Part shown: piece by piece, positions 42,935 to 50,094 of the stretch
Numbering within the stretch: the stretch's first letter is position 1
How the letters are laid out: every line of letters starts with the position of its first letter
Origin: Escherichia coli
Lineage (GTDB): Bacteria; Pseudomonadota; Gammaproteobacteria; Enterobacterales; Enterobacteriaceae
Assembly: GCF_003991155.1 (NCBI RefSeq)
Contig: NZ_CP031293.1
DNA length: 64,000 nucleotides
Reading direction: 5' to 3' (one strand)
Program-made: the position numbers and the translations under genes
The notes under the pieces: generated by a model
Seen by the model: the letters and a program-made list of their open reading frames with translations, nothing else
Databases searched by the model: none
Told to the model about the DNA's origin: nothing

Positions 42935-43581
42935 AAAAAATAGCCATGCTTCACACCAGTTCAGCCACGCTTGCGGTGATGCAACAACTGATAGGCGATA
43001 TCATGCCTGAGGCTGAAGTGATGCATCTGGTTGAGGAGTCTATGATTAAGCAGGTGATGAAAGCGGGCGGTGTTACGCCAGATATCGCCGCACGGATCGC
43101 TGATTACATACGGATCGCTGAAAAAGCCGACTGCGATATTTTCATTACCGCTTGTTCATCAATTGGTACTGCTGTCGAACAGTGTCAATTTATGACTTCA
43201 GTACAACTGGCACGGATTGACTGTGCGATGGTGGATGAAGCAATCAACAAAGGGGAACACATTGCTGTGCTGGCAACGGTGGCCACAACGCTGAAACCGA
43301 CGCTTGATTTTGTCCGGCGAAAAGTTCAGGAAAGTGGAAAACAGCGGATTATTACACCTGTTTTAATGGAAGAAGCCTTCCATGCGTTATTGAATGGTGA
43401 TATGGGAACGCATGACCGCATTGTGAGTGAAGGATTACAAAAGGCCTTTGGGCAGGCAGATGTTATTATGTTAGCGCAGGCATCGATGGCACGGGTGCTG
43501 CAAAATATGCCTGAGCCTCCGGTTCCGGTATTAACATCGCCAGAAAGCGGTATTCGCTGGTTGAAAACATTCGCGAGTTAA
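42931..43581 (+). CDS. Asp/Glu/hydantoin racemase-family enzyme
   Basis: 216 aa; start overlaps GlcG stop; conserved Cys-containing ACSS segment. Confidence 0.6.
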   Translation: MKKIAMLHTSSATLAVMQQLIGDIMPEAEVMHLVEESMIKQVMKAGGVTPDIAARIADYIRIAEKADCDIFITACSSIGTAVEQCQFMTSVQLARIDCAMVDEAINKGEHIAVLATVATTLKPTLDFVRRKVQESGKQRIITPVLMEEAFHALLNGDMGTHDRIVSEGLQKAFGQADVIMLAQASMARVLQNMPEPPVPVLTSPESGIRWLKTFAS

Positions 43582-44101
43582 GTCAGGTATAGTTTCTATA
43601 TTAAAGACGTTTACACATAATGGTGTACAGGCCCATTCAGAAACGGAACTGGGAATTTATTAACGGATAATCCGGAAACGTATTAAATGGCAGAAGGTAA
43701 CTACTTTCTGCCATTTCACAGACAGGATGTACATATTAATCGGCCATGATGGTTGACATAAAAAATGCATCGGCAGTGATGTGGCAAGTTTTTCCCGGAC
43801 AATGTTTTTCTTCATCCCACTTGCAGAAAATATATAATATTATATTTTATATAACATTTTCTAACTCATTGAATACACTTGCAAATCTTCTCATTCTTAC
43901 TTAGAAATATTATTAATTTTAACGTTCTTTGTTGAATGTTTGTTTGGTTACAGCCATCTAATTTTTTAAATGCACAGTATCTGTGGATAACTTTGCGTAA
44001 ACACTGGGGACAGAGCTCGTTGAACCAGAGAAAGCACGCATGAAAACAAAATACTCATTCTTTAACCATTCTGTATAAGATCAGATGTCAGATCTGCTCA
44101 A

Positions 44102-44157
44102 TTCCGCTTTCCCGGTCACTGACTCGCTACGCTCGATCGTTCGGTTGCGGCGAGCGG
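44102..44157. other. ColE1/pBR322-type primosome assembly site (pas/ssi)-like sequence
   Basis: TTCCGCTTTCCCGGTCACTGACTCGCTACGCTCGATCGTTCGGTTGCGGCGAGCGG is ~90% identical to the remembered pBR322 segment TTCCGCTTCCTCGCTCACTGACTCGCTGCGCTCGGTCGTTCGGCTGCGGCGAGCGG. Confidence 0.4.
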
Positions 44158-44455
44158 AGTCTCCTTTCTCAAAATCAGGCTTCGTGCATCTGGTCACAAA
44201 CCCGTATATCAATCATCATTGATGAGAAATTATCTTTATGAGGGCGTTTTTTTGGTTTCAGTTTTGCACGGAACCAGGAGATTTTTGGGAGTTGTTTTAT
44301 GTATGTTGTAAATAAAATTTTAATATTGACATCTACTGTACGTGCATAGAGTACGCCGGTGACCAACGTCAGCATTCCACTGTTCCAGTAACTAATTAAC
44401 GTAAGTGAAGTTATCGAGGAAGCAATACTGGATGGAGAAGTCGTCCTTGAGGTAT

Positions 44456-44737
44456 TCACTTTCCTTTCGTTCTGCCCATTAGTGGACAGCTAACTAGTGG
44501 CAGGACATCGGAGTACAGCACCTTCCCGTTGTTATTTATCAGCACGGCAGCTTTCTGGTTATTGACGAGCACAGTTTTCACGCCGCCGCCAAAGTTGTGG
44601 AAGACTCGCACCAGTGACTCATGGGTATGTTCAGCATCCTGTATGGGGCAGCAAAGAGATAGAAGCGACGTGAGAACCCCCTGCGTATTAGTCGCGAAGT
44701 TAATGCAGCATCGTTGTCTGACCAGTACCCCAGTCAT
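44456..44737 (-). pseudogene. IS21-family IstA transposase fragment
   Basis: …DAEHTHESLVRVFHNFGGGVKTVLVNNQKAAVLINNNGKV… matches the IstA segment …DAEHTYESLVRAFRYFGGCVKTVLVDNQKAAVLKNNNGKV…. Confidence 0.55.
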
Positions 44738-44952
44738 GCTGGAGCTGGTAATCCGGCTGAGTTTTGAAGCGAACCGTTTTCTTCGATTTCCGTCTGGGAA
44801 GTAATCAGACTCAGCACGGACAAAAATTGCAGCGCCCGGATGGCACGGGTAATGGTCAGATTACCGGATGCGGATTAGGTGCCGCGTAGTGAAGCGCGCC
44901 GGATTCAGAGTCGCTAGTATGGTCATACAGCGAAGGAAAGCCGCCAATTTTT

Positions 44953-45225
44953 GTGCCGGACGTGGAATATACAGCGAATGCTGATGTAAAAGGCGCTCGT
45001 AATATTTTAGCTGCGGGACATACTGTGCTTGCCAGGGAAGGGATGGTGCAGTCAGACCACCCGTTGAAGCGAAATGAACCTGAACCATACGACAACCTGA
45101 AAGTAGCAGGAATCCACGCCCTGAAGGACGTGGAGGAAGTCAAATCGATGGTAGGTTGTAGGTTTATGGCAACATCTGCTTCATTAGATACATGTCGATA
45201 TACAGAACATATATCACATTTATGA
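44953..45225 (+). pseudogene. 3' fragment of an IS200/IS605-family tnpB (RNA-guided nuclease) gene
   Basis: …ANADVKGARNILAAGHTVLAREGMVQ… resembles the conserved TnpB C-terminus; no N-terminal part upstream. Confidence 0.4.
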
Positions 45226-45903
45226 ATTTTCTTTTATCCTGCTATTTTGGGGTTTATTGTGAAAGTAACTTTCAAGAACAGGCAGATAGTACCAGGATTC
45301 AGGATGTTTTTTCAGGAATTCATTTAAAAATGATTGCATTGTTAAATATAAATCTTTGTTATTTCCTTTATGTATAAAATCATAAATCCACACGTAATTA
45401 CTGTAATTAGAATCAAAGTATGATGCAATAAAATACGCATTAGCACCTGCGCGTCTTACAATATATTCCCAACCACCGTGCAACCATGCTTTCTTATTCA
45501 GTAGACAAGCTTCTCTTACAGAACCATAGTTTTCGCTACTATACACTGAGGGTATATCTGGTAATATAATCAAATTAGCTCCGTTTTTTACAAGCTTAAT
45601 CATGGCCTTTATTTCTGTAATGCCATTTTTTTCGAAAACAGTAATCTGATGCCCAAGTCCAGAAAGTGAATGTATTAATTCCAACTCATTGAGACCATTT
45701 ACAGAACTTCTATAAAAAATAAAATGTGAGTTAGATTTATATGAAAGTAGAATTTTATGAATGGCTGTCCAGTATTCACCAGAATGTAAAACTACAAACA
45801 CAGAATTATTAAGTGTTTTATGTAATGCATCCAAAAAACAGTCTTCATATATAAATTTTGTACGGTGTGCATACTCATGAAGGGTATTCATAGACACAAT
45901 CAT
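45220..45903 (-). CDS. Orphan hypothetical protein, 227 aa, AT-rich (weak resemblance to LpxL/LPLAT-type acyltransferases)
   Basis: Uninterrupted ORF in low-GC DNA; family assignment uncertain. Confidence 0.5.
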   Translation of the reverse strand: MIVSMNTLHEYAHRTKFIYEDCFLDALHKTLNNSVFVVLHSGEYWTAIHKILLSYKSNSHFIFYRSSVNGLNELELIHSLSGLGHQITVFEKNGITEIKAMIKLVKNGANLIILPDIPSVYSSENYGSVREACLLNKKAWLHGGWEYIVRRAGANAYFIASYFDSNYSNYVWIYDFIHKGNNKDLYLTMQSFLNEFLKKHPESWYYLPVLESYFHNKPQNSRIKENS

Positions 45904-45983
45904 TTTAGCCCTATTACTGACAATAATGATAATTGATATTCTGAGCGTATCGAAAATAAGTCCGAATTATCAGAAGGTTTATT

Positions 45984-46756
45984 ATGAAAATACTCATTGC
46001 AGGGGCAACCGGAAGTATTGGTCTTCATGTCGTGAATACCGCTATTGAAATGGGTCATCAGCCCGTGGCGCTGGTCAGAAATAAACGCAAAGTAAAATCT
46101 CTTCCTCGTGGAACAGATGTTTTTTACGGCGATGTTTCAATGCCGGAAACACTCACCGAATTGCCGAAAGATATTGATGCCATCATCTTCACTCTCGGTT
46201 CTGATGGCCAGGGGCGTATTGGTGCCAGAGCGATCGATTACGGAGGAGTGCGTAATATTTTGCGAATATTCAGGGATACACCTGTTCGTATCAGCTAATG
46301 ACCACGATTGGCGTGACTGAGCGGCTCAGCACTTGGAATCAACGCACTGAGGTTCATGACAGGAAAAGACGTGCCGAGCGTCTGGTCAGGGCCAGCGGTC
46401 ATCCCTATATTATCGTCCGGCCCGGCTGGTTTGATTACAACAATGATGATGAACACAGGATCGTTATGCTTCAGGGGGATCGTCGCCATGCAGGAACACC
46501 GGAAGATGGTGTGATATCCCGGGAGCAAATCGCCCAGGTTCTGGTCAGTGCCCTGACCAACGACGAGGCAAAAAATAAAACGTTCGAGCTGGTGGCTGAA
46601 CGAGGTGAAGCACCACAGGATCTTACCCCACTGTTTGCAGAACTGCAGACTGATGATGCACAAAAAAATGATGGGGTTCTGGACATAGACAATATGCAGC
46701 TGAGAGAAGAACCGGAGTGCATTATTAACGAGCTGAACCTGTATTCAAAAAATTAA
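45984..46756 (+). pseudogene. NAD(P)-binding SDR/NmrA-like oxidoreductase gene split into two ORFs (104 aa + 152 aa)
   Basis: N-terminal Rossmann motif GATGSIGLHVV in ORF1; ORF2 continues the same fold in a different frame; ORFs overlap at TAATG (46296-46300). Confidence 0.5.
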
Positions 46757-47205: not shown

Positions 47206-47541
47206 ATGTTTAGAACAGAAGACATCATCGATGAGATAACCCAATGGATTGATTCAAATTTACATAAGCCGCTGAAGATAGAGGATGTTGCTGCGCGGGC
47301 AGGATACTCGAGGTGGCATCTTCAGCGGATTTTTGTGCAGGTGAGAGAAATTAGCCTTGGGAAGTACATAAGAGATACGAAACTTAGACTTGCAGCAAAA
47401 GATCTTATCGCGACTAATGAGCCAGTGATGGTTATCGCCTTTAAATATGGATTCGATTCACAACAAACTTTTACTCGGATTTTCTTTAAAAAATATAAAT
47501 TGCCACCATTGAAATATAGGGTAATGACTCCAACTTATTGA
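47206..47541 (+). CDS. MarA/SoxS-like small AraC-family regulator, C-terminus replaced by IS1 insertion
   Basis: 111-aa ORF with two HTH motifs; its last 7 codons lie inside IS1. Confidence 0.6.
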
Positions 47542-48038
47542 TAGTGTTTTATGTTCAGATAATGCCCGATGACTTTGTCATGCAGCTCCACCGATTTTGA
47601 AAACGACAGCGACTTCCGTCCCAGCCGTGCCAGGTGCTGCCTCAGATTCAGGTTATGCCGCTCAATTCGCTGCGTATATCGCTTGCTGATTACGTGCAGC
47701 TTTCCCTTCAGGCGGGATTCATACAGCGGCCAGCCATCCGTCATCCATATCACCACGTCAAAGGGTGACAGCAGGCTCATAAGACGCCCCAGCGTCGCCA
47801 TAGTGCGTTCACCGAATACGTGCGCAACAACCGTCTTCCGGAGCCTGTCATACGCGTAAAACAGCCAGCGCTGGCGCGATTTAGCCCCGACGTATCCCCA
47901 CTGTTCGTCCATTTCCGCGCAGACGATGACGTCACTGCCCGGCTGTATGCGCGAGGTTACCGACTGCGGCCTGAGTTTTTTAAATGGCGGAAAATCGTGT
48001 TGAGGCCAACGCCCATAATGCGGGCGGTTGCCCGGCAT
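47535..48038 (-). CDS. insB: IS1 transposase InsB
   Basis: 167 aa matching IS1 InsB. Confidence 0.9.
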
Positions 48039-48232
48039 CCAACGCCATTCATGGCCATATCAATGATTTTCTGGTGCGTACCGGGTTGAGAAGCGGTGTA
48101 AGTGAACTGCAGTTGCCATGTTTTACGGCAATGAGAGCAGAGATAGCGCTGATGTCCGGCGGTGCTTTTGCCGTTACGCACCACTCCGTCAGTAGCTGAA
48201 CAGGAGGGACAGCTGATAGAAACAGAAGCCAC
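47957..48232 (-). CDS. insA: IS1 InsA
   Basis: 91 aa matching IS1 InsA (zinc finger CPSC…CSHC). Confidence 0.9.
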
Positions 48233-49998: not shown

Positions 49999-50023
49999 TT
50001 GGCGGAAGATCACAGGAGTCGAA
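49999..50023. repeat. attL core: 25-bp direct repeat overlapping the 3' end of selC
   Basis: Identical to 4873..4897. Confidence 0.8.
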
Positions 50024-50094
50024 CCTGCCCGGGACCGCTGGCGGCCCCAACTGGATTTGAAGTCCAGCCGCCTCACCGGAGACGACGATCTTCC
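50000..50094 (-). tRNA. selC: tRNA-Sec (selenocysteine tRNA)
   Basis: Reverse complement matches the 95-nt E. coli selC sequence GGAAGATCGTCGTCTCCGGTGAGGCGGCTGGACTTCAAATCCAGTTGGGGCCGCCAGCGGTCCCGGGCAGGTTCGACTCCTGTGATCTTCCGCCA. Confidence 0.95.

Follow-up and report, generated by a model that had tools for sequence, protein, structure and literature searches.

The question raised by this locus is whether mobile-element DNA lying between a catabolic gene cluster and an orphan gene of Escherichia coli is spent debris or still holds a working part, in particular a guide RNA. The DNA is chromosomal and belongs to a stretch of 64,000 nucleotides (64 kb), here called the window. A sequence-only reading had noted an IstA fragment on the minus strand and a TnpB C-terminal fragment on the plus strand at 44456-45225, had assigned them to the IS21 and IS605 families, and had proposed that an IS605 right end surviving just downstream could still encode an omega-RNA-like transcript. 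The debris is bordered by the plus-strand catabolic cluster (otnK/otnC to a racemase gene, ending at 43581) and by the orphan gene on the minus strand (45220-45903). A tRNA-Sec gene is located at 50000-50094 (minus strand) and an integrase gene adjoins it in matching genomes, which places the fragments about 5 kb inside a selC-linked genomic island. Of 5426 complete E. coli genomes, 21 carry the segment 44000-45400, at 100% identity, and the others lack it; strains WW2, 2016C-3878 and MRY15-117 are among the carriers.

Sequence comparison resolves the 0.8-kb segment 44347-45143 into three adjacent pseudogene fragments, derived from istA, from an IncFII repA and from the 3' end of an IS609-like tnpB (Table 1). 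Each is an internal or terminal part of its parent, and neighbours either abut or share a few bases. In the 21 carrier genomes each of them already has a pseudogene label from PGAP, the RefSeq annotation pipeline. By these comparisons, homology of the three fragments is confirmed far beyond chance; the E-values, together with a right-end (RE) boundary that coincides exactly with that of relatives, rule out accidental similarity. The IstA and TnpB fragments of the sequence-only reading are thereby borne out, with strands as given, and their identity as remnants of the IS21 and IS200/IS605 families agrees with the PGAP pseudogene annotation. The interval in which they had been placed is that of two chance open reading frames (ORFs) rather than of the homologous segments, and the IncFII repA fragment between them had been overlooked. 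The IS605 right end does survive, but inside that interval and not at about 45200-45400, where a search had been advised; that region is unrelated flank and orphan-gene DNA, and homology stops at 45143.

Table 1. Features of the locus, in coordinates of the window.
Feature	Position	Strand	Evidence
IncX1-type plasmid backbone scraps	43883..44229	+	blastn, 81-86% vs pECTm80
istA pseudogene fragment, ISEc62-like, IS21 family	44347..44798	-	tblastn, blastn, NCBIfam, PGAP
IncFII repA fragment, RepA aa 106-136 of 284	44782..44881	-	blastn, tblastn, PGAP pseudogene
IS609-like tnpB 3' fragment, TnpB/InsQ aa ~338-402 of 402	44920..45100	+	tblastn, blastn, alignments, PGAP
IS609-type right end (RE), by alignment	45101..45143	+	boundary common to relatives
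Stretch homologous to omega-RNA (reRNA) scaffold, decayed according to the models	44979..45143	+	covariance model, pair counts, energy
Flank ATCGATGGTAGGTTGTAGGT, would-be guide segment if an omega-RNA were made	45144..45163	+	without homology to any relative
Chance ORF of the sequence-only reading, 90 codons	44953..45225	+	ORF list; without Pfam or NCBIfam match
Chance ORF of the sequence-only reading, 93 aa	44456..44737	-	ORF list

A tblastn search of the window with the IstA protein of ISEc62 (390 aa) gave three collinear pieces in three frames (combined E 3e-38): aa 98-124 at 44798-44727, aa 133-228 at 44716-44459 and aa 234-270 at 44457-44347. The fragment spans aa 98-270, which is the DDE core including the HDWG motif, with 54-78% amino acid identity per piece and 73-80% DNA identity; blastn with ISEc62 istA gave 73% over 434 nt (E 1e-82). 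It is damaged by two frameshifts, an internal stop, and deletions of 3 and 10 aa, and it extends 109 nt to the left of the minus-strand ORF, for which the NCBIfam profile transpos_IS21 gives a weak match (E 0.004). PGAP describes it as 'IS21 family transposase, frameshifted, incomplete'. Unlike ISEc62, which consists of istA and istB, the fragment lacks the N-terminal DNA-binding part, the C-terminus and istB, and it is too short to include IS ends. Because ISEc62 homology stops inside istA on both sides, the IS21 terminal inverted repeats cannot be present. The 64-kb window contains neither a tblastn match to the ISEc62 IstB helper ATPase nor a second IstA.

The neighbouring plasmid-derived piece covers 31 codons of repA, with 80.6% identity over 93 nt to a Salmonella plasmid repA (blastn, E 3e-15; local E 1.5e-20) and 71% amino acid identity (tblastn, E 1e-9). 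It resembles the IncFII RepA replication initiator in this stretch, but it is an 11% internal fragment without the origin, copA, tap or the rest of the gene. Further plasmid scraps are found to the left. According to blastn against pECTm80, two pieces, 43883-43911 and 43962-44178, correspond to sequence adjoining the rep gene of this IncX1 plasmid, and a third, 44171-44229, to the 3'-terminal part of a RelE/ParE toxin gene; about 850 bp of pECTm80, with the antitoxin and the 5' part of the toxin gene, is deleted between the pieces. The segment 44100-44160 may resemble a ColE1-type primosome-assembly hairpin.

The plus-strand fragment corresponds to TnpB (InsQ) of IS609, an E. coli element with tnpA and tnpB/insQ. 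With the 402-aa protein as query, tblastn aligned aa 358-396 to 44968-45084 (72% identity, E 1e-12) and found a small collinear piece, aa 338-345, at 44921-44944. The DNA of IS609 matches 44920-45143 with 74% identity over 224 nt (blastn, E 6e-41). The last ~65 codons of tnpB are kept, including the RuvC-III motif 'ANADVxGARNI'; this is the C-terminal 16% of the gene, the first 84% being missing. Relative to IS609 there are deletions of 12, 1 and 5 nt, and the 12-nt deletion and a frameshift have removed or scrambled the second CxxC region of TnpB. The ancestral stop codon TGA is present at 45098-45100 but is out of frame as a result of the 5-nt deletion, and hence the plus-strand ORF runs on to 45225. 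Its first 44 codons overlap the TnpB homology, the remainder is frameshifted read-through over the RE, and the last 82 nt lie in flanking DNA. Profile scans of this ORF with Pfam and NCBIfam gave no match since the fragment is too short and frameshifted, so that homology was established by tblastn and blastn. The PGAP label is 'RNA-guided endonuclease InsQ/TnpB family protein, frameshifted, incomplete'. Within the 64-kb window, tblastn with IS609 TnpA (the Y1, HUH transposase) gave no match at E up to 1, and there is no intact or second TnpB. The copy differs from IS609 by its DNA identity of ~74-75% (~80% to the nearest relatives found, on Salmonella and E. albertii plasmids), by the lack of the left end (LE) and tnpA, by its three indels and by degraded scaffold pairs. 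DNA homologous to insQ (~75%, blastn) is present in 4925 of the 5426 E. coli genomes, and the carrier genomes have 3-4 other IS609-type 3' ends.

Alignments show that an IS609-type right end survives exactly at the position given in Table 1. Five independent chromosomal IS609 insertions (next to ydcO, hslO, yedK and yfeD, and inside a TetR gene) and the window copy are homologous up to ...GTGGAGGATGTCAA and diverge at once thereafter. The window RE reads ...GTGGAGGAAGTCAA, with the boundary GGAGGAWGTCAA| at 45143 and flank from 45144. The same terminus is found in 8 plasmid-borne relatives from Salmonella, E. albertii, Pantoea, Klebsiella and the Plautia stali symbiont, and in 5 held-out relatives including those of Pseudoalteromonas and Acinetobacter, so the boundary is identical in 18 relatives altogether. 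The 43 terminal nucleotides are well kept, with 6 substitutions, and are the only part of the relic that still has a family-typical appearance. They contain a GAAT motif (45110-45113), a subterminal hairpin (45114-45133), a 6-nt spacer and the terminal TCAA (45140-45143), as IS609 does. The hairpin, CCACGCCC-TGAA-GGACGTGG, has 7 of 8 stem pairs by hand count, with one C/A mismatch at a position that is T-G or C-G in relatives; it ends 10 nt from the terminus, a family-typical spacing, and its pattern occurs once in the window. In the IS608 mechanism, GAAT, hairpin and TCAA are reportedly what TnpA reads at the RE.

The left side of the element is gone. In five intact IS609 copies the left boundary is TTAT|CCGGTGCGCC... 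and the LE hairpin is CCCCGTCC-TTCA-GGGCGGGG; the alignment of these copies implies that TTAT is the insertion target of IS609, and TTAT is probably also the TAM of its TnpB. The 64-kb window has no match to this LE at up to 3 mismatches, and no second match to the hairpin pattern. The would-be guide 20-mer (45144-45163) likewise has no second copy in the window at up to 3 mismatches. Like PATEs and other MITE-like IS200/IS605 derivatives, the relic carries an end hairpin but no working transposase. A PATE has an LE as well as an RE, whereas only an RE is found here, which makes the window copy a truncation and not a miniature element; a PATE/MITE origin was ruled out because left end, second hairpin and second guide copy were all not found. 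The exact RE/flank junction (GGAGGAAGTCAAATCGATGGTAGG) had 0 matches in 100,044 species-representative genomes, and the same search yielded no less-decayed ancestor and no empty site.

Whether the DNA upstream of the RE could still give a folded guide RNA was approached through its structure. Rfam models, applied with permissive E-values to 43500-46500, brought no omega-RNA family near threshold; HgcC gave a weak match (13.6 bits, E 6.4). Intact IS609, used as control, also gave sub-threshold matches only, to RAGATH-18 (19.4 bits), HgcC (16.6 bits) and sot0042 (9.4 bits), which are RNAs described at tnpB 3' ends (PMC11061315, PMC4615843). These matches fit the idea that IS609 plausibly encodes a canonical guide RNA, and prove little. 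Since intact IS609 also stays below every gathering score, Rfam is uninformative here and a family-specific model was built. For 11 intact relatives, RNAalifold predicted a consensus structure of the final 170 nt, in which 49 pairs form 8 helices and 6 pairs show compensatory double changes; 96.8% of the cells are paired, compared to ~38-47% with partners slid, and the covariation score exceeds that of all 500 column shuffles. The structure remains a prediction, backed by modest covariation and the sub-threshold Rfam matches.

The window copy lies where an omega-RNA scaffold is typically located, at the tnpB 3' end, ending at the RE and with the flank in the place of the guide. In this position, and in its weak HgcC match, which IS609 shares, it resembles the omega-RNAs (reRNAs) of TnpB for which ISDra2 is the paradigm, but the conserved structure has been lost. 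It keeps 33 of the 49 consensus pairs, versus 45-49 in intact relatives. Its energy on the consensus structure is -2.7 kcal/mol as compared to -45 to -69 in intact copies, and its minimum free energy is -41.9 kcal/mol (z = +0.2) as compared to -59 to -74. Among 109 columns that are invariant in the 11 intact relatives, 23 are changed or deleted. The broken pairs touch every helix, including a fully invariant one (columns 54-58/91-95) and the stop-codon stem, and a T-to-A change in the otherwise invariant GGAGGATGTCAA terminus breaks a long-range pair.

A long-range helix is predicted between columns 24-29 and 162-167 (window 45002-45007 and 45135-45140), where ACAUUU inside the RuvC-III coding motif would pair with GGAUGU right before the TCAA terminus. 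As this helix hardly varies among the relatives, it is out of reach of covariation. It may be the counterpart of the pseudoknot in characterised omega-RNAs.

Two covariance models were derived from one alignment, R1 with structure and R2 from sequence only, and sequences outside the training set served as controls (Table 2). Entropy weighting differs between R1 and R2, so that absolute bit differences are approximate, although the contrast is large. Structure adds +28 to +42 bits in complete elements and +3.7 bits in the window copy, and complete elements that are as divergent in sequence as the window copy, or more so, still gain ~30 bits. The Acinetobacter copy, in which only the C-terminal half of InsQ is matched, may itself be a remnant.

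Table 2. Scores of covariance models with structure (R1) and from sequence only (R2).
Copy	R1 (bits)	R2 (bits)	Gain (bits)	Remark
IS609	205-207	163-164	+42	complete tnpB
Klebsiella plasmid element	183.0	148.9	+34	held-out, complete tnpB
IncI2-plasmid element	131.7	101.4	+30	held-out, complete tnpB
K. quasipneumoniae element	109.3	81.6	+28	held-out, complete tnpB
Pseudoalteromonas element	80.2	47.2	+33	held-out, complete tnpB
Acinetobacter copy	61.0	45.6	+15	held-out; DNA without annotated tnpB
Window copy, full length 44979-45143	103.4	99.7	+3.7	
Second relic (L008)	42.9	47.4	-4.5	

The second relic in Table 2 is another IS609-type right-end remnant, at 1947-2068 of L008, from E. coli AR_0077 plasmid NZ_CP026754.1. 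It is cut 4 nt before TCAA, where an IS256-family (IS1414-type) transposase pseudogene begins. A 372-nt CDS called 'astA' by PGAP starts as EAST1 and runs on through the relic on the opposite strand.

According to these models the omega-RNA scaffold upstream of the window RE is structurally decayed, and the loss of 16 of 49 pairs together with the small structure gain speaks against the proposal that the surviving right end could still encode an omega-RNA-like transcript. An intact but divergent lineage with a compensated structure of its own was ruled out, as the 23 columns that are hit are invariant from Escherichia to the Plautia symbiont; the many non-canonical pairs in the structure-aware alignment and the broken coding frame also oppose it. 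Regarding transcription, a consensus scan found no sigma-70-like site on the plus strand of 43600-45143, which does not prove that transcription is lacking, and two terminator-like hairpins (44137-44157 and 44738-44757) are located between the upstream operon and the relic.

We consider it very likely that 44347-45143 is non-functional debris of successive plasmid and IS insertions into the selC island, followed by deletions and point-mutational decay. The directly observed basis for this is the homology, the boundaries, the frame disruptions, the loss of RNA pairs, and the absence of partner genes and left end from the window; we infer in what order the events took place and that transcription is lacking. 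In the proposed course, plasmid-derived DNA carrying IS copies would have been acquired by the selC island, after which nested insertions and deletions, and then neutral decay, would have followed. The IS609-like element would have been deleted from its 5' side, leaving the last ~224 bp; such a truncation explains that the original right terminus and the junction 45143|45144 are intact. The flank beyond 45143 would then be the AT-rich DNA into which the element had inserted. With 100% identity among the 21 carriers, the DNA gives no indication of ongoing activity. The stretch is neither a functional IS nor a functional omega-RNA: LE, tnpA, an intact tnpB and istB are missing, and the conserved scaffold structure is lost. 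All its parts come from known families (IS21/ISEc62, IS200/IS605/IS609, IncFII RepA) and are already pseudogenes in RefSeq. The only new points are where exactly the RE ends, TTAT as the inferred target of IS609, and the structural decay of the scaffold.

Other readings, in which some part of the stretch would still be in use, have to be weighed against debris. That the relic acts as an orphan guide RNA or decoy on resident IS609 TnpB, with the guide ATCGATGGTAGGTTGT... directing or titrating the nuclease, or that its RE is nicked by TnpA supplied in trans, is very unlikely. If true, the trans-acting reading would mean an orphan guide RNA for a transposon nuclease. Taken separately, an omega-RNA-like transcript of the relic, loaded in trans by the resident IS609 TnpB with 45144-~45163 as guide, would draw on an RE, a scaffold-homologous stretch of 165 nt and an RE/flank junction that are all present, on the other IS609-type loci of the carriers, from which TnpB and TnpA may be available, and on a family that plausibly encodes such an RNA in view of the sub-threshold Rfam matches of intact IS609. 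These points are opposed by the broken pairs across all helices, the small structure gain, the altered terminus with its lost long-range pair, the missing promoter-like site upstream and a would-be target without a second copy in the window, and we regard such a transcript as extremely unlikely.

The RE by itself could be a substrate for IS609 TnpA acting in trans, with single-strand nicking at TCAA or one-ended events that would make the locus a minor hot spot of instability. The motifs, the hairpin and the family-typical spacing described above are in line with this, but no LE or TTAT-linked left hairpin exists in the 64 kb and there is thus no excisable unit, the hairpin carries its C/A mismatch, and complete identity of the locus in 21 of 21 carriers gives no sign of instability; this reading is unlikely. 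A domesticated small protein, encoded by the plus-strand ORF from the TnpB fragment or by the minus-strand ORF from the IstA fragment, has in its favour that both frames are open for 90-93 codons. Neither has a domain match above threshold, however, the length of the plus-strand ORF comes from the frameshift, by which it continues across the RE into unrelated flank, PGAP calls neither as a gene in most genomes, and the indels and stop in the remnants are typical of neutral decay, so that its probability is close to negligible.

As debris, the stretch itself matters little: most of the IncX, IncFII, IS21 and IS609-type DNA that the selC island took up was later lost, a typical island history. 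It does illustrate that truncated IS200/IS605 relics can retain a perfect right-end junction, so annotation and omega-RNA searches keyed to the RE will pick up structurally dead 'orphan guides'. Comparing structure-aware with sequence-only covariance models, with held-out relatives as reference, offers a quick test of live versus dead copies.

Some observations concern the DNA to the right of the debris. The orphan gene encodes 227 aa, is AT-rich (33-38% GC) and is annotated as hypothetical by PGAP; it shows sub-threshold similarity only to LpxL/LpxM-type lipid A acyltransferases (Pfam PF03279, E 5e-4; NCBIfam PRK08419, 26.9 bits with a cut-off of 248). An SDR-family oxidoreductase gene at 45984-46756 (plus strand) is split into two ORFs, 45984-46298 and 46298-46756, and is flagged by PGAP as frameshifted in matching genomes. 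Further on, IS1-type ORFs recognised by eye at ~47535-48232 (InsB-like 47535-48038, InsA-like 47957-48232) break a helix-turn-helix gene (start at 47206) at its 3' end. The same gene is uninterrupted in strain WW2, where it encodes 118 aa, which points to a recent and strain-specific insertion.
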